Shown piece after piece: positions 21,166-40,227 of a stretch of 64,000 nucleotides of DNA. The notes beneath the pieces are model-generated. The model searched no databases. It was not told where the DNA came from and worked only from the letters and a program-made list of their open reading frames with translations. This DNA is from Planctomycetia bacterium (GTDB lineage: Bacteria > Planctomycetota > Planctomycetia > Pirellulales > JACPPG01), in the NCBI GenBank assembly GCA_016191115.1, contig JACPPG010000050.1, forward strand, positions 12,390 to 76,389. Reading direction: 5' to 3'. The first letter of the stretch is position 1. The number at the start of each line of letters is the position of its first letter. The position numbers were made by a program, and so were the translations under genes.

Positions 21166-22941
21166 TCACGGCCCCGATGCCGCACTCTTCGCCGCAGTCG
21201 TCTGGGCCCGCACAAACGCCAGCACCGCGTCGAGGGCCGGGTCGCGATTGGCGAAATAGTCCTCCGAGCTCAATTCGACCCGGAAATCCGGCGCCACCCA
21301 GATCCGGCTATCGGTCGGGTAGGCGTGCTGGTGGTAGCGGGTCGAGATGCTCAGAGCGGCGCCGCTGTAGGGGAGCACCACGCCGGTGCTCTCGCCGGCG
21401 GCCTTGGGGCGCGAGCCAGTCGGCTCGCCGACGAACACCGCCTCGGTCAATCGGTCGAGGTCGTTGGTGAAGTTCTGCGCGGCCGAAAACGTGCCGCGGC
21501 CAACCAGGGCGTAATAACGCGCTTGCGGGTTGTCGCGCTCATAGTGAATCAAGGTTTTCAACAAATTGAGATACAAATAAGTGTCGCCGCCGCCATTGTG
21601 CCGCAGATCGACGATCACCGCTTTCGGGCGCTGGCTCTCGAACTGCGCCTGCAGTCGATCGGCGAACCGATCGAGCGTGTCCCCCTTCTGGCCGCCCACC
21701 GAATTGAACTGGAAGTACAGGGCTTCGGCATCCGGCAGCGGCTCGAACCAGTACGCCGTCTCCATCTTCGACATGTAGCGCGGCGGGGGTGGTGCGTCGG
21801 CAAGCCGTGAGGGAGGCAGGTCGCCATTGTACCGCGGACCGTCGGCCGGTTCGATCGCCACGGTGCGCGTCTTGCCGGCGCGATCCACGACGTCTAGTGA
21901 TAGCGGCCCCTCGGCGGGCATCAGTCCCAACGACTTGAGCAGCCACGGCTTGACCAGCTCGAACGGGCCAAGCCAGATGATGCCCATCGGATTGTCGCGG
22001 CTTTCGACGGTCGCCAGCAATTGCTTGAGGCGCTCGATGTCGGCGCCGCCCAAGCGCTCGACGCGGCAGCCGATCAGGTCGCGGTAGGGCTCGGCGGCGT
22101 CGATCACGAACAGTCCGTCGCTGAAGAAGTACAGCCGCAGCGGCAGGGTCTTTCGACCGCCAAAATGGGGCCGGGTGTGGCCGTCGCCCAAGAGCACCAG
22201 CGCCTTTTGTATTTCGGCCAGGATGTCACCGTCGGTGAGATCGGCGACTTTCGCGCGAATTGTTTGGACCGCTTCGGTGAACCGCGCGGCCCGGTCCCCT
22301 TCGCGCCATTGGACGTGCATCCGCGCGGCTTCGCGCAGCAAGTGATCGAGATCGCGCCGCCACTTCTCACCGCGATCGACCTTGTCGGCGTCGACCGGCA
22401 GCGCCGCCAGGCGGATGAATCGCGGGTCGTCGCGCAAGAACTCGAACCGCGGGTCGGTCCGCATCACGTTCGAGTGCTCGTGCCGCGCGGCCAGTGCTCG
22501 CTCGAGCCAATCCATGGTCCGCTCGCCGTCGTGCGACTGGGCGTACATCCGGGCGATCTGGTATTCGTTGTGGCCGCCCGCCGCGTCGAACCCCAGTTCG
22601 ATCAGCTTCTCGTAGGCGGCGATGGCCCGGTCGTAGTGTTCCGTGCGTTCTTCGCAACGCGCCAGGCGGTTCCAGCTTGGCTGGTGGTAGGGGTTGACCT
22701 CGACCAGGCGCCGGTAAAGAGGCAGAGCCTGCTCGTAGTTGAACGCGCGGAATTGCTTCTCGGCGTCCTGGACCAGGGCCAGATACTCTTCCGGCGGTAG
22801 CGTCGCGGTCCGCGGCTGCGGAACTTCGCCCGCGGCATCCTCGGCCGAGGCGACCGCCAGACCGCCGCGGCTGGCGGCCAGCCCTAGAAGGACAGACAAG
22901 ACCAACAACTCACGTCCGGTGGGTAAGGATGCGCATCGCAT
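21166..22941 (-). CDS. secreted TPR + S41-family (tail-specific-like) peptidase domain protein
   Basis: Signal peptide MRCASLPTGRELLVLSVLLGLAA. TPR-like N-terminal region. C-terminal VIVDLRHNGGGDTYL...GRGTFSAAQNFTNDL is typical of peptidase S41. Confidence 0.65.
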   Translation of the reverse strand: MRCASLPTGRELLVLSVLLGLAASRGGLAVASAEDAAGEVPQPRTATLPPEEYLALVQDAEKQFRAFNYEQALPLYRRLVEVNPYHQPSWNRLARCEERTEHYDRAIAAYEKLIELGFDAAGGHNEYQIARMYAQSHDGERTMDWLERALAARHEHSNVMRTDPRFEFLRDDPRFIRLAALPVDADKVDRGEKWRRDLDHLLREAARMHVQWREGDRAARFTEAVQTIRAKVADLTDGDILAEIQKALVLLGDGHTRPHFGGRKTLPLRLYFFSDGLFVIDAAEPYRDLIGCRVERLGGADIERLKQLLATVESRDNPMGIIWLGPFELVKPWLLKSLGLMPAEGPLSLDVVDRAGKTRTVAIEPADGPRYNGDLPPSRLADAPPPPRYMSKMETAYWFEPLPDAEALYFQFNSVGGQKGDTLDRFADRLQAQFESQRPKAVIVDLRHNGGGDTYLYLNLLKTLIHYERDNPQARYYALVGRGTFSAAQNFTNDLDRLTEAVFVGEPTGSRPKAAGESTGVVLPYSGAALSISTRYHQHAYPTDSRIWVAPDFRVELSSEDYFANRDPALDAVLAFVRAQTTAAKSAASGP

Positions 22942-23181
22942 GAATCGCCTCGCCTGATTGGATGCAGGGTCTCGCACAGGGTCGCCCGGGCGCAGCGCGA
23001 CCGCTCCCGCCCGTGGGGCCCCCGGCCCAGTCTATTCGCCGCTCAGAGGGCTTTCTTGGGGCTGAGGAGACAGCGGCGTAGAAATAGCCGCGCGCAGAGA
23101 GCCACCTCAGCGCTCAATAGAGCAGGAAACGCCCACGTCTCTTTCGGCCGTGGGGCGGCTGAGTCAAGGCGCGCGAAGGAA

Positions 23182-32320: not shown

Positions 32321-32938
32321 ATGCTTAGCGAGACCGCCTGCGACCCCCAGCAGCTCATTCAATTGGCCAAGGCGCGCGGCACAGGCGCTTTGGGGCAGCT
32401 TCTGGAGCTGTACGCCAACTACCTCACCCTGTTGGCCAGCGTGCAGATCGGGCGGCAGTTGCGCGGCAAGGTCGATCCGGCCGACGCAGTGCAGGAGACG
32501 TTTCTCGAGGCGCATCGTCATTTTGGAAGTTTTCGGGGTCACACCGAAGCGGAGCTGGTCGCCTGGCTGCGGCAAATCCTGGCTGCGCACCTGTCGAATC
32601 TCCTCCGCCGCTACCTGGGTACCAAGGGTCGCGACGTGCGGCTCGAGCGGACGTTGGCCGCCGATGTGGATCACTCTTCCGCGGTCCTCGACCGGCAACT
32701 CATCTGTCCTGGGGAGTCCCCCAGCCAGCACGCGGCGCGCCGCGAGCACGCCGTGCTGTTGGCCGATGCGCTCGCGCGGTTGCCGGCCGACTACCGGGAA
32801 GTGATCGTACTGCGGCACATCGAGGCGATCCCCTTTGCCGGCGTGGCGCAGCGCATGGGCCGCAGCGAGGACAGCGTGCAGAAGCTGTGGGTCCGCGGCC
32901 TGGCGCGGCTGCGGCAGGAAATGGGAGCACACGCGTGA
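32321..32938 (+). CDS. ECF-type RNA polymerase sigma factor (kinase-associated)
   Basis: Region 2 DAVQETFLEAHRHFGSFRG. Region 4 YREVIVLRHIEAIPFAGVAQRMGRSEDSVQKLWVRGLARLR. The TGA stop overlaps the kinase GTG start. TTG at 32315 is an alternative start. Confidence 0.88.
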   Translation: MLSETACDPQQLIQLAKARGTGALGQLLELYANYLTLLASVQIGRQLRGKVDPADAVQETFLEAHRHFGSFRGHTEAELVAWLRQILAAHLSNLLRRYLGTKGRDVRLERTLAADVDHSSAVLDRQLICPGESPSQHAARREHAVLLADALARLPADYREVIVLRHIEAIPFAGVAQRMGRSEDSVQKLWVRGLARLRQEMGAHA

Positions 32939-35748
32939 CGCCCAATTGTCAACCCGAACACGACGTGGGACCGGGCGACAACGCGGCGCCAGCCGGCCGC
33001 GTCGATCGGGCAGCGGACGACCCGCGAGTCGTTCGCGCCGTCGCAGAATATGTCGCGGCGCTCGAGGCCGGCCAGCACCCGAGCCGGCAGGAGTTGCTCG
33101 ATCGCTATCCCGAAGTGGCCGACGCGGTCGCGGCTTGCCTGGACGGATTGGCGGTGGTATTCGCGGCGGCGCCCGGCTTGCGGTCGCTGTCCGGCGGGCA
33201 CTCGGCAAGCGGCAGCGCGGCCGACGTGCCGCGATCATTGGGTGATTTTCGTATCTTGCGCGAGATCGGCCGCGGCGGCATGGGCGTGGTGTACGAGGCG
33301 GAGCAACTATCGCTGGGCCGCCGCGTGGCGGTCAAGGTCCTGCCGTTTGCCGCCGCGCTCGACGGGGCGCGGCTGCGACGATTCAAGAACGAGGCCCAGG
33401 CCGCCGCCCAGCTTCACCACACGAACATCGTTCCCGTGTACGCGGTGGGCTGCGATCGCGGCGTGCACTTCTACGCCATGCAGCTCATTGAAGGGCGGTC
33501 GCTGGCCAACGTCATTCAAGAGCTGCGCGGCGACGGGCAAGAACCGCTCGGCTCGCGCGGCGCGGATGGGGCCGAGGATACCGATCCGTGGCCGGCGAAC
33601 GCGCACGCGCCAAGCGCTGAACCCGCCGCCGCGGCAGAGGCCCTGGCCGCGCAGAGCACCGCCTCGGGGCGCCACAGCGGCACGCTGGCGCAGATCTCGC
33701 ACGAGCGCAAGACCAGCCGCTCGGCGTTCCATACCACGGTCGCGCGATGGGGCATTCAGGCCGCGGAGGCCCTCGAGCACGCCCATCAGATGGGCGTCAT
33801 CCATCGCGACGTGAAGCCGGCCAACGTGCTTGTGGATGCGCAGAGCAAAATCTGGATCGCGGATTTCGGACTCGCGCAGTTTCATGCCGAAGCCGGCTTG
33901 ACGGCCACGGGAAACATGGCCGGCACGATTCGCTACATGAGCCCGGAGCAGGCCTCCGGCGAGCGCGTCGTGCTGGACCATCGCACCGACATCTACTCGC
34001 TGGGAGTCACGTTGTACGAGTTGCTCACCGGGAGGCCGGCGTTCGACGACAGCGATCGCCGCGTGCTCGCGCGGCACATCGCGGCCGAGGAACCCCGCGC
34101 GCCGCGGGCGATCGACAAGACGATCCCGGCGGACCTGGAAACGATCGTGCTGAAGGCCATGGCCAAAGCGGCCGCCGACCGGTACGACACGGCCCAGGCG
34201 CTGGCCGACGACCTGCAGCGGTTCCTCGACCAGCAACCGATCCGCGCGCGGCGGCCCACGCCGATCGAGCGGGTCGTGAAATGGTCGCGGCGGCACCGGC
34301 CGGTGGTGGCGTCCGGCGTGCTCTTGTTGTTGCTGGCGGCGTTGGGACTACTGGCCAGCACCGTCCTGATCGCCCGCGAGCATGCCAAGACCAAGGCAGC
34401 CTACGCCAGCGAGCGCATCAAGGCCCAGGAGGCCGACCAGCAGCGGCAACAGGCCGAGGCGCGGTTCCGCCAGGCGCGTCGGGCGGTGGACCTGTTGGCC
34501 GAGATCGGCGAGGACGAGCTGACCGACGCACCGTTCATGCAAAACGTCCGCCGCCGCATCCTGGAAGCGACCTTGGACTACTACCAGGACTTCATCGAGG
34601 ATCGCACCGACGACGCGGCGCTACAGGCCGACTTGATCGCCTCGCGGACGCAGGTGCAGCGCATTCTCAGCGATCTGGCCGATCTGCGCGGCTTCGGCCA
34701 GACGATGAAGATGGCCATGCTGCTGGAAGAGCGCGACGCGCAGCGCGACCTGGGACTGTCGCAAGAGCAGATCGACGAGATCGAAGCGGCGCAAAAGCAA
34801 AGGTGGGACCGCGGCTCGCCCGATCGCAAGTTCCACGAGCTGTCGGCCAGCGAAAAGCACGACCATTTTCAACAAGAGGCCGAAGAGCAAGCGGCCGCCA
34901 TCCGCGGGTGGCTCACGCCCCAGCAGCAGGCACGCCTGAAGCAGATCGAGCTGCAGGTTCGCGGGCTGTCAGCGTGGACCGACACGGACGTGGAGCAGGC
35001 CCTGGCGCTCTCGGACGAGCAGCGGGCGAGCATCCGGGCGTTGGTGGATGCGTCGCACGGGGCGGGCCCCGGATTCGATTGTCCGCCGGAGGACGGCCCC
35101 CCGCGGGGACCTCCGCCGGGCGAGCGTCCGCCAGGCGAGCCGCGGCCACGTGAGGCTTCATTTGACGAGCCGGCGCGGCGCGAACCGCCCCCACAGCCGC
35201 CGCACGAACCGCGCGATCAGGGGAACGAAGGTCCAAACGCATTGATTCGTCGCCAGATCGAGAGCCTTTTGACGAGCCAGCAGCGGCAGTCCTGGGCGGA
35301 GCTCATCGGTGACACCTACCTCGGACGCGCCATGCGACCGCGCCCACCCGGCGAACCACACGGTCACGGCCCACGCGGCTTCGGCGACTTTGGGCCCGGA
35401 GATCACCGGCCCGGAGGGCCGCCGGGGCATGGTCCGGGCGGACCGAGAGCTCACGGCGACGGCCCGCCCCGACGCGGACCCGCGCCACCCGGTGACGATG
35501 GCGGACCGAGAGAACGCTTCCGCGATTCAAGCGAGCCACAGCCGAAGGGACGCGAGCCACGAACAGAGCGAAACCCCATGCCCGAGCGGCATGCGGACGA
35601 GGATAGGTCAGAGGGCCGGGCAGAAGTGGAAAGCCAGGGACAGTTCGATGGAGGAAGAGTTTCATGCGATCGAGGATTACGAACAAGAGACGAGGCGTGC
35701 GTTACTTTCAACCGCAATTGGAGGCTCTGGAAGATCGCTTGTGCCTGA
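32935..35748 (+). CDS. membrane Ser/Thr protein kinase with LTxxQ-motif and Pro-rich extracytoplasmic region
   Basis: GTG 32935-32937 overlaps the sigma stop 32936-32938 (GTGA). Kinase motifs GRGGMGVVYEA, VAVKVL, HRDVKPANVL, DFGLA, SPEQ. TM helix VVASGVLLLLLAALGLLASTVLIA. After it come LTPQQ/LSDEQ/LTSQQ/LSQEQ motifs and GPP-rich tracts. Confidence 0.88.
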   Translation: MTPNCQPEHDVGPGDNAAPAGRVDRAADDPRVVRAVAEYVAALEAGQHPSRQELLDRYPEVADAVAACLDGLAVVFAAAPGLRSLSGGHSASGSAADVPRSLGDFRILREIGRGGMGVVYEAEQLSLGRRVAVKVLPFAAALDGARLRRFKNEAQAAAQLHHTNIVPVYAVGCDRGVHFYAMQLIEGRSLANVIQELRGDGQEPLGSRGADGAEDTDPWPANAHAPSAEPAAAAEALAAQSTASGRHSGTLAQISHERKTSRSAFHTTVARWGIQAAEALEHAHQMGVIHRDVKPANVLVDAQSKIWIADFGLAQFHAEAGLTATGNMAGTIRYMSPEQASGERVVLDHRTDIYSLGVTLYELLTGRPAFDDSDRRVLARHIAAEEPRAPRAIDKTIPADLETIVLKAMAKAAADRYDTAQALADDLQRFLDQQPIRARRPTPIERVVKWSRRHRPVVASGVLLLLLAALGLLASTVLIAREHAKTKAAYASERIKAQEADQQRQQAEARFRQARRAVDLLAEIGEDELTDAPFMQNVRRRILEATLDYYQDFIEDRTDDAALQADLIASRTQVQRILSDLADLRGFGQTMKMAMLLEERDAQRDLGLSQEQIDEIEAAQKQRWDRGSPDRKFHELSASEKHDHFQQEAEEQAAAIRGWLTPQQQARLKQIELQVRGLSAWTDTDVEQALALSDEQRASIRALVDASHGAGPGFDCPPEDGPPRGPPPGERPPGEPRPREASFDEPARREPPPQPPHEPRDQGNEGPNALIRRQIESLLTSQQRQSWAELIGDTYLGRAMRPRPPGEPHGHGPRGFGDFGPGDHRPGGPPGHGPGGPRAHGDGPPRRGPAPPGDDGGPRERFRDSSEPQPKGREPRTERNPMPERHADEDRSEGRAEVESQGQFDGGRVSCDRGLRTRDEACVTFNRNWRLWKIACA

Positions 35749-36605
35749 GCGTCACGGTCACGAGCGTGGCGGTGGCCAACGGCAACGAGCTGAGGATCAC
35801 GGGCGATAGCGCCGCCGACACCGTCAACATCGCCGATGCCGGCAACGGTCACATCGAGGTCACCGACGCGAGCGGCACGCTACTCGGCTCGGCCGACAAC
35901 GTCACGCGCGTCAAGGTAAATACCAAAGGTGGCGAAGACGTCGTCAACTACGCGCTGACGGGTCCGCTGACCAACAGCGAATCGGTGACCATCTACCTCG
36001 GCACAGGCGAGGGAGACAGTGCGAACATCGACCTGTCGCAGGGCGTCACCGGGGCGAACCTGCGGATGTACGTCGAGGGGAGCGCCGCGGCCGACACGAT
36101 CGCCGCCACGCTCGGACCGCTGTCCGACGCGCGCGTCGGGCTCACGATCGACGGACGCGCCGGCGACGACAATATCTCGGTCACCAGCGCGGCCGCCGAC
36201 ATCCAGGAAGACGCGTCGCTGCGCGTCCAACTCCTAGGCGGAAGGGGAGATGACAACATCACCACCACCTTTGACGGAGAATTGCTCGGCGACTTCCGCT
36301 ATGCCGTCAACGGAGGGCAAGGCGCCGACACCATCGCGAGCGATTTGACGGTCGCTTCGGGCAGCACCGGCAGGTTGTCCGCCTCGGCCGCGGGCGGCGC
36401 CGGCGTGGATACCGTCACGCTGAACGTCAACGACAACTCGGCCGACGACAACGGCGACAGCGGGCTCGATCGGCTGCACGCCGTGATCTTCGATCCTGAC
36501 GAGTCCGACATCCTTACCCATACCGACAACGTGACAGAAGTCACGGGCTTTGGTCTCGGGCACGGGCGCGGCTGGCCGCGCGGCGGCTTCGGGGGCTGCT
36601 CCTAA
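35664..36605 (+). CDS. secreted G-x-G-x-D repeat (beta-roll/beta-helix-like) protein, paralog 1
   Basis: GGAGGA RBS lies 8 nt before ATG 35664. N-terminal RRGVRYFQPQLEALEDRLCLS leader. Repeated GxGxD units (GTGEGDSANI, GRAGDDNISV, GGRGDDNITT, GGQGADTIAS, GGAGVDTVTL). About 50-60 percent identical by eye to 36905-37810. Confidence 0.75.
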   Translation: MRSRITNKRRGVRYFQPQLEALEDRLCLSVTVTSVAVANGNELRITGDSAADTVNIADAGNGHIEVTDASGTLLGSADNVTRVKVNTKGGEDVVNYALTGPLTNSESVTIYLGTGEGDSANIDLSQGVTGANLRMYVEGSAAADTIAATLGPLSDARVGLTIDGRAGDDNISVTSAAADIQEDASLRVQLLGGRGDDNITTTFDGELLGDFRYAVNGGQGADTIASDLTVASGSTGRLSASAAGGAGVDTVTLNVNDNSADDNGDSGLDRLHAVIFDPDESDILTHTDNVTEVTGFGLGHGRGWPRGGFGGCS

Positions 36606-36904
36606 GCCCGACGGAGAAAGCAATTCTGGAGTCGCGGGGGCACGAGCGTTCCGTGCGCGCGTCCCCGCGCTCCCCTTCCTTCGCGGCAGGCCATCGGCGC
36701 ATACATCCTGACGTGTTCGTAAGATTCGATCGCGCTTGCGCGAGCGCGAAGCATGCACGCGCGTGTCGAATCGCGGCGCATGCCCCCAAGATTGACTGTG
36801 CCTTGTCGCACAGCTTCCGCGATTTGCAGTTCCCTTCTAGAATGCGCGTAGTGCCCGGGCCGGTCGGCGGGCCATGAGGGGGGTTCGGTAAGGGAGTCGT
36901 TGTG

Positions 36905-37810
36905 ATGCAATCCCGGAATTACACCAGTCGTGGGCTCTTGCGCGGATATCGGCCGCGCGTCGAGGCGCTGGAACCAAGACTTTGCCTGAGCGTCACGGTT
37001 ACGACCGTGGCCATCAACGGAGGAAACGAGCTAAAGATCGTCGGCGATGCGGCCGCCGACACGGTCAACATCACGGATCAAGGCAATGGCCAGGTCGCCG
37101 TCACGGACTCGGGTGGCGGGGCGCTGGGCTCGGCCGACAACGTCAAGCTCATCAAGGTCGACATGGGGGACGGGCAGGACGTGGTAAACTACACGCTGGC
37201 CGCCCCGCTCACCAACAGCGAAGCAATCAATATCAAGCTGGGGAGCGGCGCCGGCGACACGGCGAACCTCGATCTGTCGCAGGGCGTCAACGGCGCCAAC
37301 CTTTATGTCGGCGTCCAAGGGACCTCGGGCGACGACACCATCGCGGCCTCGATCGGCAACGTGTCGGCCGGCGCGCACGTCGGGGTCTACTTCAACGGCC
37401 GCGACGGCAACGACAACTTGTCGCTTACAGCGACAGGGAACATCGATGCCGACTCGTCGCTACGGACGGCTCTCTTCGGCGCCAAGGGCGAGGACTCGAT
37501 CAACACTTCGTTCACCGGCCAGATCCTCGGTCGACTCAGCGTGGCCTCGGACGGCGGTCGCGACAACGACACGCTCGTCACGGAGATCACCGCCGACGCG
37601 GGGAGCACCGGCAGGCTGAAGGCGTTTTCGCATGGCGGTCCCGGCACCGACAACGTGACCCTCAACGTCACCGACAATTCGGGCGCCGGCAGCGCCAGCA
37701 CGCTGGCGAAGCTGCACGCCGTCATCTTCGACCCACGCGCCATCGACACGCTCGTGCACACCGACAACGTGAAGGTGTTGGGCCACGGTCATGGCCACGC
37801 GCATGCGTAG
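36905..37810 (+). CDS. secreted G-x-G-x-D repeat protein, paralog 2
   Basis: AAGGGAG RBS. Leader GYRPRVEALEPRLCLS. Collinear with paralog 1. The C-terminus is GHGHGHAHA. Confidence 0.75.
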   Translation: MQSRNYTSRGLLRGYRPRVEALEPRLCLSVTVTTVAINGGNELKIVGDAAADTVNITDQGNGQVAVTDSGGGALGSADNVKLIKVDMGDGQDVVNYTLAAPLTNSEAINIKLGSGAGDTANLDLSQGVNGANLYVGVQGTSGDDTIAASIGNVSAGAHVGVYFNGRDGNDNLSLTATGNIDADSSLRTALFGAKGEDSINTSFTGQILGRLSVASDGGRDNDTLVTEITADAGSTGRLKAFSHGGPGTDNVTLNVTDNSGAGSASTLAKLHAVIFDPRAIDTLVHTDNVKVLGHGHGHAHA

Positions 37811-38025
37811 CTGGCGATAGTGCGGCACAGCGGCGTTGTGACCATTTGGCCCCCGGTGATTCACCGGGGGCTAATTTGCGCGCGAGGGCACACTGCGTTT
37901 CACCGTAGAAAATCGGCCCAACGTCAAAATGGGCGGTTTGGACGCCGTTTGTGCATTTTGAGGTGTATTACGGAGGCACGCGTCTCCGATAAGAATCTCA
38001 CGGGACCAACAGGGAGGGCGATTCC

Positions 38026-38340
38026 GTGAGACGATCCACGCGCTATGCGCTCGTCGCGGCGGCGCTATTGCTAGCAACCGGTGCGGTCGGCGGCCCAGCG
38101 TGTCACGCCGTACACCCGCCGGGGCCGCCTCCGGTCATCGATTGCTACCGGCCGTACTGGGGCGGTCTGCGCGGGTGGGGATTCTTCTTTGGCCAGGCAG
38201 GCTACCCAGCCTACACGGTCAACAGCCCGCCGTACCGCTTCAATACTTGCGGGTTCCCGCCGCTTTCGGAAAGCTCGTACTACCCGTACTACGGCACGGG
38301 CATCAACCAATATCCGCGCAGCTTCCAGTACAACTGGTAG
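38026..38340 (+). CDS. small secreted aromatic/Pro/Gly-rich protein
   Basis: GTG at 38026 is preceded by GGGAGGG. Signal peptide MRRSTRYALVAAALLLATGAVGG. The mature part is rich in Y/F/W/P/G (RPYWGGLRGWGFFFGQAGYPAY...SYYPYYGTG...FQYNW). Confidence 0.6.
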   Translation: MRRSTRYALVAAALLLATGAVGGPACHAVHPPGPPPVIDCYRPYWGGLRGWGFFFGQAGYPAYTVNSPPYRFNTCGFPPLSESSYYPYYGTGINQYPRSFQYNW

Positions 38341-38695
38341 GCAGCGAGCGGCTTTTCGCGCGGTTCGCAGCGGCTGACGTTCGAAGACCCTCCGGGGTAA
38401 ACCCGGAGGCTCGCTGGAACGGCATGGGCGCCTCGGGCGCGGCGCGCGGCGTGCGGCGTGCTCTTTTCGCCTCGCGGCGTCCGGAACGCACGGCGGCGTT
38501 GCTCTTTCGCAACGTCCTTCCCCGGGGCGGCAGTCCTGATTTCCGACTAATTTCGGATCCTTCATGTCTTGCGCCTGCCGGCGCGGCGCACTTCCGCGCG
38601 GATTGAGCTATGGTTGCCTTTGCCCGGTGAACGGCGAGAATGCTCTACGTGATGCACACCCTGAATACTCGTCCGCGTTGAAAAAGGAGGTTGCC

Positions 38696-38986
38696 ATGAA
38701 GCGCTTGTTCCTTGTGCTGCTCGTGTTCGGCGTCCTGGCGTTCGCGGTGAGTACGCCCGCGCAGGCGCGGCGTTATTGGGGCGGATACTACGCTCCCTAC
38801 TACGCCGGCTACTACGGCTACCCGACCTACTACGGCGCCGCCTACCCCGCCTACTATGGCGGCTACGCGTATCCCGGCTACAGCACGTACTACAATGCGT
38901 ATTATCCGGGCTACTACACGCCGTACGCGACGCCGTACTACGGCTACAGCTACTACTCCGGGTACCCCGGTTACTACGTCTGGTGA
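38696..38986 (+). CDS. small secreted tyrosine-rich protein (about 31 Tyr in a 72-aa mature region)
   Basis: Strong RBS AAGGAGG (38684-38690) before ATG 38696. Signal peptide MKRLFLVLLVFGVLAFAVSTPAQA. Mature sequence is RRYWGGYYAPYYAGYYGYPTYYGAAYPAYYGGYAYPGYSTYYNAYYPGYYTPYATPYYGYSYYSGYPGYYVW. Confidence 0.7.
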   Translation: MKRLFLVLLVFGVLAFAVSTPAQARRYWGGYYAPYYAGYYGYPTYYGAAYPAYYGGYAYPGYSTYYNAYYPGYYTPYATPYYGYSYYSGYPGYYVW

Positions 38987-39031
38987 CGAGGCGGCCCGTG
39001 AGGCACGCCGTTGCGATTGCCTGATCGGCGC

Positions 39032-39074
39032 CATGCCCATCCTCCTTCGGCCCTGCTGAAGACGGATGGGCATG
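39032..39074 (+). terminator. possible terminator hairpin after the Tyr-rich gene
   Basis: CATGCCCATCC (39032-39042) pairs with GGATGGGCATG (39064-39074), followed by TTCTATTC. The 21-nt loop is large, so this call is weak. Confidence 0.3.
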
Positions 39075-39161
39075 TTCTATTCATGGCCCGCGCATGGCAC
39101 CCTACACGAACGTCGCGCCGTGCGTTGCACTTCCACGCCGCATCGTCGATACTAGGCGTGC

Positions 39162-39470
39162 ATGGGCACGCGGGCGGGCAAGAACGGACAGAGGCGCAAG
39201 AGACTCTCGACGCGGACTCTCCGCGCGCTTACGCCCGTCATAGCGATTGCGATCGCCGTAGCGTGCCCGTGGGCCGTCCGGGCGATGGATGCGACCGAGG
39301 CGGCGCGGATCGCCCGCGAGTATCTGGACAGCGGCGACAGCGATGACCGCGCCGCGCTCGCGGAGCGACTCGCGGAATACACGGGCGATATCGCCCGCGT
39401 GCTCCGCGCCCTCAGTGCCCGGTCTTACGAGGCGGTCGAGCCGGGCTCAGGACTTTGCGGTTCTCCTGGG
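39162..39470 (+). pseudogene. probable 5' remnant of a secreted protein gene
   Basis: ATG at 39162 gives signal peptide RTLRALTPVIAIAIAVACPWAVRA and a short helical segment (EAARIAREYLDSGDSDDRAALAERLAEYTGDIARVLRALSARSYEAVEPG). The frame then degenerates and runs by chance into the antitoxin ORF. Confidence 0.3.
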
Positions 39471-39581
39471 GGCCCCTTCGGGTTTCCGTGCGTTCCTCCG
39501 TTCCTCGCGGCCTTGCTTACCCGCTCGGTGCAAGGGATAATTCCTAGGGTAAGGCGGTCGTCCGATAGAAAGGAGGCAACG

Positions 39582-39827
39582 GTGCTGCATTCCACGGTGA
39601 CGAAGAAGGGTCAAACAACGATTCCCGGCGAAGTTCGTGCCGCACTCCGGATCAAACCGGGTGACAAGCTTCGATACGAGGTCGAAGGGGACCGTGCCAC
39701 GATCCGCGTTCACCTTGGCGTCAAGGGGCTCAAGGGCGCGCTCGCCAGCGACAAGGGCAAATCGCTCTCCTTCGCGCAGATACGGCGGGCGGCCGCGGCG
39801 GCTCGCCGTCGTGGGGGCGCGAAATGA
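39582..39827 (+). CDS. AbrB/SpoVT-MazE family antitoxin
   Basis: AAGGAGG RBS before GTG 39582. STVTKKGQTTIPGEVRAALRIKPGDKLRYEVEGDRATI is a SpoVT-AbrB swapped-hairpin motif. The stop overlaps the toxin ATG (ATGA). Confidence 0.75.
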   Translation: MLHSTVTKKGQTTIPGEVRAALRIKPGDKLRYEVEGDRATIRVHLGVKGLKGALASDKGKSLSFAQIRRAAAAARRRGGAK

Positions 39828-40227
39828 GCAAGCGGCGGCTGGTGGATACCAATCTGATTATTCGGCACCTGGTCCAGGATAACCAGCGGCAAGCGTCGCC
39901 GGCCGGCTCTTCGAAGCCTGCGATCGCGGTGCCCTGACGTTGGTCGTGCTGCCGGCGGTGGTTGCCGAGTGTGTTTTCGTCCTGGAGTCGTTCTACAACC
40001 ACGCACGCGCTGATATCGCGCGGACGATGGTCCATTTTTTGAGTAGCCCAGGCATTGAGCTGCCGGACGTCGCGGCCCATCTCGACGGGCTAAATCGCTA
40101 CTCGCGGAGCAAAATGCACTTCGTCGACTGCGTGATAGCGTCGGCCGCGGCCGCGCTTGGCCTGCCGGTTGCGACTTTCGACAGCGATTTCAAGAAGTTC
40201 CCGGACCTGATGATCGACCTTGATTGA
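39824..40227 (+). pseudogene. PIN-domain (VapC-like) toxin, frameshifted
   Basis: ATG at 39824 reads MSKRRLVDTNLIIRHLVQDNQRQA, then ends at TGA 39935-39937. A different frame continues ..RLFEACDRGALTLVVLPAVVAECVFVLESFY...FVDCVIASAA...TFDSDF to 40227. The shift lies near 39884-39905. Confidence 0.7.

Follow-up and report, generated by a model that had tools for sequence, protein, structure and literature searches.

Several kinds of Tyr-rich low-complexity protein in eukaryotes, including the high-Gly/Tyr keratin-associated proteins, FUS-type [G/S]Y[G/S] domains, mussel foot proteins, extensin, high-molecular-weight glutenin (GYYPTSPQQ) and the Tyr-rich proteins of oocyst walls, place Tyr "stickers" between Gly, Ser and Pro spacers. 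In these materials the stickers drive cohesion, phase separation or oxidative cross-linking, and many of the proteins carry signal peptides. Walls containing dityrosine have also been described (PMC2726925, PMC4776368). In this study, we analyzed a 64,000-nucleotide stretch of a contig from a Planctomycetia bacterium (referred to as the window), in which a gene at positions 38696 to 38986 of the forward strand encodes a small protein with a Sec-type signal peptide and a mature chain that is 43% Tyr. Compared with the eukaryotic materials, to which it has no homology and from which it is separated by a domain of life, this chain is far shorter and Tyr-richer, and it lacks their Lys, 3,4-dihydroxyphenylalanine (DOPA) or Gln context.

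Among bacterial proteins, the sulfur-globule proteins (Sgp) reportedly have a high content of Gly and of aromatic residues, Tyr above all (this is said to go back to Brune in 1995 and Pattaragulwanit in 1998). They are Sec-exported envelope proteins that have been described as keratin-like or plant-cell-wall-like, and SgpA, SgpB and SgpC of Allochromatium vinosum, like those of other sulfur oxidisers, are small and repetitive with regularly spaced residues (PMC10386293), a description that also applies to the window protein. However, the hosts of the Sgp proteins are sulfur-globule-forming Proteobacteria and their role is sulfur storage, whereas the host here is a planctomycete, and no sulfur-oxidation gene was present among the 19 larger open reading frames (ORFs) of the window that were scanned, between 19 and 50 kb. 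The window protein also has far more Tyr and carries Trp/Arg caps at its ends, this comparison being one of descriptions only. Another analogue is the 57-residue peptide of Bap1 (Bap1-57aa) from Vibrio cholerae, an exported, disordered, aromatic- and basic-rich adhesive peptide with pseudo-repeats, which binds lipids in the nanomolar range and sticks non-specifically to lipids and abiotic surfaces by avidity (PMC12965690, PMC10102183). While Bap1-57aa is a loop within a folded beta-propeller/beta-prism adhesin and is rich in Trp, Phe and Lys (consensus WbpKpnmY, core WFFG), the window protein is free-standing and dominated by Tyr, and there is no sequence relationship between the two. The Bacillus spore-coat proteins CotC, CotU and CotG are high in Tyr and rich in Lys and Asp. 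They too are small bacterial structural proteins of very high Tyr content, and they become cross-linked and insoluble (PMC7944565), but the mother cell produces them with no signal peptide, and they are confined to Firmicutes, whereas the window protein is Sec-exported, almost uncharged and devoid of Lys and Asp. The planctomycete YTV cell-wall domain of Pfam did not match (at E <= 10) either the Tyr-rich protein or a YTV-containing 104-residue protein encoded next to it. The plant-type glycine-rich protein family (GRP, PF07172) did not match the Tyr-rich protein; its sub-threshold score of 19.5 bits was obtained only for an unrelated Gly/Cys-rich alphaproteobacterial protein (L113).

A tyrosine-rich exported protein and its gene

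The gene and its product have the following features:

38684 to 38690, + strand: Shine-Dalgarno (SD) sequence AAGGAGG, 5 nt 5' of the ATG, read off directly
38696 to 38986, + strand: coding sequence of the Tyr-rich precursor, 96 residues, stop codon counted in, based on translation and on GC content at third codon positions (GC3)
38696 to 38767, + strand: Sec-type signal peptide MKRLFLVLLVFGVLAFAVSTPAQA, with a K/R n-region, a hydrophobic core and an AQA cleavage motif
38768 to 38785, + strand: N-terminal Arg/Trp cap RRYWGG, based on the family-wide enrichment of W and R at the chain start
38786 to 38962, + strand: Tyr-rich core, with Y units spaced by G/A/P/S/T, based on composition and lag-4 periodicity
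38864 to 38893, + strand: unit YAYPGYSTYY within the core, matching Y.YPGY[ST][ST]YY
38963 to 38983, + strand: C-terminal cap YPGYYVW, Trp last, with YPG.YVW in common with a relative (L071, see below)
39033 to 39073, + strand: terminator-like hairpin (ATGCCCATCC...GGATGGGCAT), then GTTCTATTCAT, based on fold energy

Read from ATG to TGA, the gene gives the 96-residue precursor MKRLFLVLLVFGVLAFAVSTPAQARRYWGGYYAPYYAGYYGYPTYYGAAYPAYYGGYAYPGYSTYYNAYYPGYYTPYATPYYGYSYYSGYPGYYVW. The first-pass annotation of the window had described an exported peptide with 31 Tyr among 72 mature residues, preceded by an AAGGAGG ribosome-binding site and a signal peptide, built almost entirely of Y, G, P, A, S and T and ending in W. 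Translation bears out these counts, with 66 of the 72 residues belonging to the six types named and a C-terminus of ..GYYVW. Cut after ..STPAQA, the mature chain has the composition Y31 G12 A8 P8 T4 S3 R2 W2 N1 V1 (43.1% Tyr) and is without D, E, K, H, C, L, I, M, F and Q; its mass is 8.67 kDa and its isoelectric point about 8.6. There are 11 YY doublets and nine single Tyr residues, no YYY, and no Tyr-free run of more than three residues. The doublets do recur as described, but their spacing is 4 to 12 residues with a mode of 4, not 3 to 5, and the autocorrelation of Tyr has a peak at lag 4 (z 3.2) and an avoidance at lag 2 (z -4.3). At the DNA level only a weak tandem repeat (a 12-nt unit in 2.6 copies) was found in the coding sequence, so the periodicity of the protein does not stem from a recent expansion of the DNA.

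The signal peptide was recognized with a simple rule (K/R, a hydrophobic core of 15 residues and AxA) and with an AlphaFold2 (AF2) model made from the single sequence, in which it forms a confident helix with a predicted local distance difference test score (pLDDT) of 94, the remainder of the protein being at about 45; it also agrees with the family consensus given below. A Tat signal was considered and rejected, as the peptide has only one KR and a very hydrophobic core, with one R or K in family members. Cleavage after AVS instead of AQA is possible and would add six residues to the mature chain.

The ORF is a genuine gene. GC content at its first, second and third codon positions (GC1/GC2/GC3) is 0.49/0.50/0.88, with 66% GC in the window overall. 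GC3 lies between 0.42 and 0.54 in four of the remaining frames, and the fifth, an antisense frame with 0.86, is riddled with stop codons. The Tyr codons are TAC and TAT in a ratio of 26:5. An in-frame 5' extension reaches an ATG at 38564, but because GC is flat along it (0.61/0.57/0.61), the start was placed at 38696. A chance origin of the Tyr richness is excluded, the binomial tail for at least 31 Tyr in 72 residues at a 3% background being 4e-28; among the six-frame ORFs of the window, this ORF and its upstream neighbor rank as the top two in Tyr density.

The gene is monocistronic, with its own strong SD sequence, a gap of 355 nt to the upstream gene and a hairpin downstream; 175 nt separate it from the downstream gene. 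For comparison, an SD-like motif of any type precedes only about 10 of 31 crudely called window genes. The 112 nt from 38984 to 39095 fold with -56.4 kcal/mol (z = -3.7 against shuffles), and the hairpin was missed by a simple terminator scan as its loop is longer than the limit of that scan. A promoter scan found no promoter, and an Rfam scan of 37800 to 39400 returned one sub-threshold chance match only.

In an exact look-up, the 96-residue sequence was absent from a collection of 15 billion proteins, while the adjoining 104-residue protein was present there (MBI2826144.1, from a "Planctomycetia bacterium" metagenome-assembled genome, MAG). The Tyr-rich gene has been called in a Logan contig identical to the window (L001). 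Since the exact protein is missing, its neighbor has an NCBI accession and the Logan call exists, this ORF was apparently passed over when the MAG was annotated for GenBank.

A planctomycete family with Trp and Arg end-caps

Protein-level searches were uniformly empty for this sequence. There were no matches with phmmer against 1.8 billion representative proteins or against the PDB; a word-seeded HMMER search of 5.8 billion proteins (E <= 0.01 and E <= 10) met 47 proteins with common 5-mers, none of which passed scoring; and a genome locus search gave 599 raw pattern matches, none of which was confirmed by tblastn. The 599 raw matches and the 47 proteins sharing 5-mers point to composition correction as the cause rather than to a true absence of relatives, which suggests that this correction strips such sequences from HMMER-based searches. 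Scans against Pfam and NCBIfam gave nothing relevant, and no family of structural proteins, for the Tyr-rich protein, its 104-residue neighbor and ten members of the wider class considered below, and a literature search on Tyr-rich planctomycete or periplasmic proteins gave nothing pertinent. The earlier statement that no described bacterial family could be recognized thus stands with respect to Pfam, NCBIfam and the PDB, but not with respect to kind, as the sulfur-globule proteins and the Bap1 loop are bacterial precedents.

Relatives were found with degenerate DNA patterns. The pattern YYxxYYxxYY, applied to species-representative genomes, gave at least 120 loci, and translation of these yielded dozens of small ORFs with a signal peptide and a Tyr-rich tail. 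One of them stood out among the matches listed, a 118-residue protein of a Gemmataceae MAG (L071, MRKLMLTLVVFGASLVTLAATPSQANAWWGRWG...YYYPGVYPGVYVWP). Its signal peptide aligned with that of the window protein with a score of 51 (18.7 +/- 4.0 for shuffles, z = 7.9) and its mature part with a score of 189 (125.6 +/- 11.9, z = 5.4), and none of 2000 shuffles reached either value. Within the 120 genome matches listed, the motifs Y.YPGY[ST][ST]YY and YPG.YVW are confined to these two proteins. A second pattern, Y.YPGY[ST][ST]YY itself, gave 59 loci on metagenome contigs, which from their identifiers are taken to be soil samples; about 21 of these loci have ORFs of 85 to 160 residues on the same plan as the window protein. 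The family as defined here consists of L071 and these approximately 21 metagenome ORFs. The signal peptide of the window protein also resembles those of one group of loci (L145/L169/L160/L172) with z = 4 to 6.

The architecture is shared throughout. Alignment of the N-termini gave the signal-peptide consensus M[RK][KS]L.L.L..G..LG...TP[AS]Q[AS].A, to which MKRLFLVLLVFGVLAFAVSTPAQA aligns. Mature chains begin with aromatic residues and Arg (QWRWRRGY, RWWRGGY, AWWWRGR and QMFRRGYGGYY, with AWWGRWG in L071) and continue with a core of YY or YYY units separated by P, G, S or T, to which the window protein conforms. Trp occurs 19 times in the first decile of the mature chains, 22 times in the last and only 9 times in the middle 80%, and 30 Arg residues fall within the first decile. 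As Trp is bipolar across the family, the terminal W is part of a conserved end-cap, and the window protein has both caps, starting with RRYWGG.. and ending with ..YPGYYVW. Pooled over the mature chains, the residue fractions are Y 0.34, S 0.15, P 0.11, G 0.105, T 0.07 and A 0.06, with D, E, K, H, I, L and C nearly absent.

Family genes have GC3 of 0.61 to 0.92 against GC1 of 0.34 to 0.50, and about 21 of 23 carry a GGAGG-type SD motif 5 to 10 nt 5' of the start, from which a high abundance of the products appears likely. The family evolves under purifying selection, with Nei-Gojobori dN/dS ratios of 0.11 for the pair L126/L173 (0.09 in the Tyr-rich part), 0.32 for L147/L177 and 0.02 to 0.25 within a 107-residue subgroup from five samples, the Tyr-rich part alone included. 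Hence the reading frame, whose loss in related genomes the first-pass annotation had named as a refutation, is kept, with dN/dS of 0.02 to 0.32. The contigs of L071 and L180 carry DUF1559 and N_methyl genes, and that of L142 carries a BBP2 porin, all of which are typical of planctomycetes; the family loci for which a taxonomic placement is possible are all from Planctomycetota.

To place the window protein itself, a profile hidden Markov model (HMM) was built from 19 relatives with this protein left out, and 1000 shuffles of the mature part were scored alongside it. The window protein reached 80.2 bits (shuffles 56.5 +/- 4.5, maximum 74.2) and, with the null2 composition correction, 30.8 bits (shuffles 4.8 +/- 7.2, maximum 26.6). 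With L071 also left out, L071 scored 60.1 bits and the window protein came second with 28.5, all other Tyr-rich exported proteins being at or below 20.9. On these sequence comparisons, the window protein is a divergent member of a conserved, unannotated planctomycete gene family, in which it has the highest Tyr content, with little Ser and with more Gly and Ala than the average member. What is new is the family, its end-cap architecture and its phyletic home; exported Gly/Tyr-rich structural proteins as a kind were known before. The protein is also not the isolated case that it had seemed, as it has this family and a wider class around it, in which Tyr can locally be even more frequent (49% in the tail of L042).

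Possible functions of the exported chain

The reading that we favor, though we would give it slightly less than an even chance of being correct, is that the protein is a disordered, self-associating sticker protein that forms a cohesive or adhesive material of the envelope or matrix. The mature chain has Tyr stickers parted by one to three G/A/P/S/T spacers, with Tyr at every second to fourth position and no charge beyond the initial RR, and after export it would keep no fixed fold; long beta-strands are argued against by the prolines, at about every eighth residue, and by the YPGY turns. Self-association would proceed via multivalent Tyr-Tyr, Tyr-Arg and Tyr-Trp contacts, by analogy with the Tyr-driven cohesion of low-complexity domains and their Tyr/Arg sticker grammar. 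The product might be a dense coat, gel or glue with little water, located in the periplasm, in the envelope or on the cell surface, which would provide cohesion or would stick to glycans, mineral and other surfaces by aromatic stacking, and the Trp/Arg ends may anchor or nucleate the assembly. Oxidative Tyr-Tyr cross-linking could then harden the material if an oxidase were supplied from elsewhere in the genome, but this dityrosine step is an unproven add-on. A dityrosine matrix, an amyloid, a holdfast, and metal or quinone chemistry, all raised by the first-pass annotation, remain speculation.

Several considerations weigh against a cohesive material: no peroxidase, laccase, tyrosinase or other oxidase occurs among the 19 larger ORFs scanned between 19 and 50 kb; comparison of flanking ORFs revealed no partner gene conserved beside the family members; the steps after export are drawn from composition; the destination may be the periplasm, the outer membrane or the cell exterior; the low pLDDT of the mature part is compatible with disorder but, coming from single-sequence AF2, is weak evidence; and on the family profile the window protein stands only modestly above unrelated Tyr-rich proteins (28.5 to 30.8 versus 20.9 to 24.9 bits). 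In addition, RR directly after a cleavage site is generally unfavorable for Sec export in E. coli, and since RR follows AQA here, the exact cleavage site is uncertain.

Other explanations have to be weighed against the cohesive material. A chain with 43% Tyr and no other reactive side chains, most of whose relatives come from metagenome contigs taken as soil, might be a sacrificial redox buffer that scavenges oxidants and radicals in the periplasm, or a pigment precursor from which a tyrosinase or laccase with its gene elsewhere would make a melanin-like or dityrosine polymer against UV and desiccation; dityrosine coats are present in Bacillus spores, yeast spores and oocyst walls (PMC7944565, PMC3744438, PMC2726925). 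We regard this as improbable, because a radical sink needs neither conserved Trp/Arg caps nor repeat spacing, and the oxidase that is missing from the scanned ORFs is not conserved beside family members either. Even less probable is a secreted defensive or antimicrobial peptide, although small size, a signal peptide, a slightly positive charge and richness in Gly and Tyr are reminiscent of the signal-peptide-bearing, Gly/Tyr-rich NLP and CNC peptides of nematodes. The chain has a net charge of only about +2 and no amphipathic character, no immunity, transporter or processing gene lies nearby, no neighbor is conserved, and strong purifying selection together with conserved caps in a stand-alone, housekeeping-like gene suits a structural role better.

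We assign a similarly low likelihood to an envelope-targeting or regulatory peptide whose C-terminal aromatic residue would mimic the signal of outer-membrane proteins, leading to hand-over to the outer membrane or to sensing by PDZ proteases (DegS, or the tail-specific S41 type). The position of the family Trp within the last few residues fits this idea, as do the ends of 42 small exported Tyr-rich proteins of diverse phyla (14 in W, 5 in F, with several G.F.F-like tails) and an S41 peptidase with TPR repeats encoded in the window. However, the family Trp is often not the final residue (..VWP, ..YWGY, ..WYPR), 72 residues with eight prolines cannot make a barrel, and the S41 gene is 16 kb away and of a common type. 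A ribosomally synthesized and post-translationally modified peptide (RiPP), with its aromatics cross-linked by a radical S-adenosylmethionine (radical-SAM) or P450 enzyme, is essentially excluded. The repeated aromatic motifs of the window protein do resemble those on which cyclophane-forming enzymes act, but the N-terminus is a classical Sec signal rather than a leader peptide, and no radical-SAM, P450, protease or transporter gene was found among the ORFs scanned at 29 to 50 kb or beside the relatives. Finally, the absence of the exact sequence from a large protein collection in which its neighbor has an NCBI accession could mean that the ORF is spurious, a TAC-rich non-coding stretch open by accident. 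This possibility is effectively refuted by the GC3 of 0.88, the SD sequence, the signal peptide and the hairpin, by relatives with dN/dS of 0.02 to 0.3 and a conserved architecture, and by the call of the same gene in another pipeline.

Neighboring genes, the wider class and implications

The surroundings of the Tyr-rich gene include the following genes, together with a DUF2204 nucleotidyltransferase and a DUF72 protein:

21166 to 22977, - strand: 603-residue protein that combines TPR repeats with a peptidase domain of the S41 type (tail-specific, C-terminal processing)
32887 to 35748: Ser/Thr kinase
35664 to 36605 and 36902 to 37810, + strand: tandem paralogues of 313 and 302 residues, both secreted and neither with a Pfam domain
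38026 to 38340, + strand: 104-residue aromatic-rich secreted protein MBI2826144.1, named "hypothetical", with a signal peptide and two Cys
39162 to 39827 and 39940 to 40227, + strand: MazE/AbrB-type antitoxin and PIN toxin pair, just downstream

Farther off in the window are genes for dehydrogenases, pyruvate kinase, a flavin adenine dinucleotide (FAD) protein, a major facilitator superfamily (MFS) transporter and an ATP-grasp protein, besides the S41 peptidase. An all-against-all BLAST of the ORFs flanking family genes found no neighbor conserved across subfamilies, synteny being common to close orthologues only. The 104-residue protein has R.YWGG in common with the Tyr-rich protein and likewise ends in W (..FQYNW), and a search of 5.8 billion proteins found only itself. 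It was considered as a paralogue of the Tyr-rich protein and rejected, since 174 of 3000 shuffles reach the observed score and the similarity is not significant. The N-termini of the tandem paralogues (..LEALEDRLCLS and ..VEALEPRLCLS) weakly resemble the LEPR-XLL motif, a sub-threshold match in NCBIfam, and one of the two has a C-terminal His/Gly tail, GHGHGHAHA. Within the 221-residue antitoxin ORF the AbrB domain is confined to residues 145 to 181, so the true start is probably much later.

Beyond the family, the genome matches listed include a wider class of exported Tyr-rich mini-proteins from Planctomycetota, Alphaproteobacteria (Bradyrhizobium, Pseudolabrys and others), Acidobacteriota and Verrucomicrobiota. 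Their plan is a signal peptide followed by a tail of 50 to 100 residues with 30 to 49% Tyr, often with W or F at the C-terminus; examples with YYRP, GYY or Gly-zipper features are L042, L014, L075, L032, L046, L041, L080, L030, L020 and L076. In the 42 small exported Tyr-rich proteins mentioned above (among L002 to L121), the frequencies of C-terminal W and F are far above background. Every class member found in public records is named "hypothetical protein", and those scanned against Pfam matched no Tyr-rich family. Compared with the family, these proteins have other repeat units (YYRP and basic, or GGYY) and other signal peptides, and some have a linker or a Gly-zipper; on the family profile they score at most 25 bits, versus 28.5 to 30.8 for the window protein and 60 for L071. 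Common descent of the family and the wider class is, from these sequences, unproven.

Several groups can be seen in this material. The alphaproteobacterial proteins L042, L014, L075, L119, L016, L040 and L045 have near-pure YYRP tails with up to 49% Tyr and 22% Arg, and many of this type end in W (..YYRYYW, ..GYVTPW, ..GFGPFW). Scans of L042, L075 and L119 gave no Pfam match, and no annotated names were found for the group. In L032, L046, L013, L074 and L031 (Bradyrhizobium and relatives), a signal peptide is followed by WRGGGWGWG, a glycine-zipper-like hydrophobic segment and a GYY/YYGG tail ending in ..RRW or ..GYW; WP_247425729.1, of this type, is a "hypothetical protein" in RefSeq. Several tails among the 42 proteins (GAGFYFRF, GINFGIRF, GPGFGFRF) look like the strand signal found at the C-terminus of outer-membrane proteins. 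A lipoprotein-like group of 320 to 600 residues from Bacteroidota (L003, L034, L010, L117, L094, L103, L011 and L029) has a conserved ..Y(A/E)xRIRRFH.. motif and then W/Y-rich stretches such as YYSPYY. Two more conserved groups of small Tyr/Trp-rich proteins come from the metagenome contigs (L155/L159/L176 and L139/L150/L157/L168/L175), with lipoprotein-type signals (..LGGC, ..LVGC); one is of 86 residues and GYY/GYR-rich, the other is of 122 to 123 residues and ends ..YYSPYWWYW, and each recurs nearly identically across several samples.

It would be a larger step, which we put forward as speculative and rather less probable than the material role of the window protein itself, to regard exported, sticker-only Tyr-rich mini-proteins as a widespread, unrecognized class of bacterial material-forming proteins. 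The present family and the YYRP/GYY proteins from outside it might then form condensate-like or cross-linked coats or glues, periplasmic or at the cell surface, in which Trp/Arg caps control assembly, and they would be hidden by the composition filters of BLAST, HMMER and some annotation pipelines. That there is a blind spot is apparent from the present case, in which protein searches on the scale of billions gave zero matches, whereas simple degenerate DNA patterns gave dozens of conserved relatives, and the GenBank annotation seems to lack at least the window gene. If our reading of the protein is true, bacteria would have equivalents of keratin-associated proteins, FUS-like domains and mussel glues that are free-standing and Sec-exported, in a minimal format of 70 to 100 residues that would be suited to synthesis and to trial as underwater adhesives or condensate formers. 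For the planctomycetes themselves, it would add one more component to an envelope and surface that are poorly understood.

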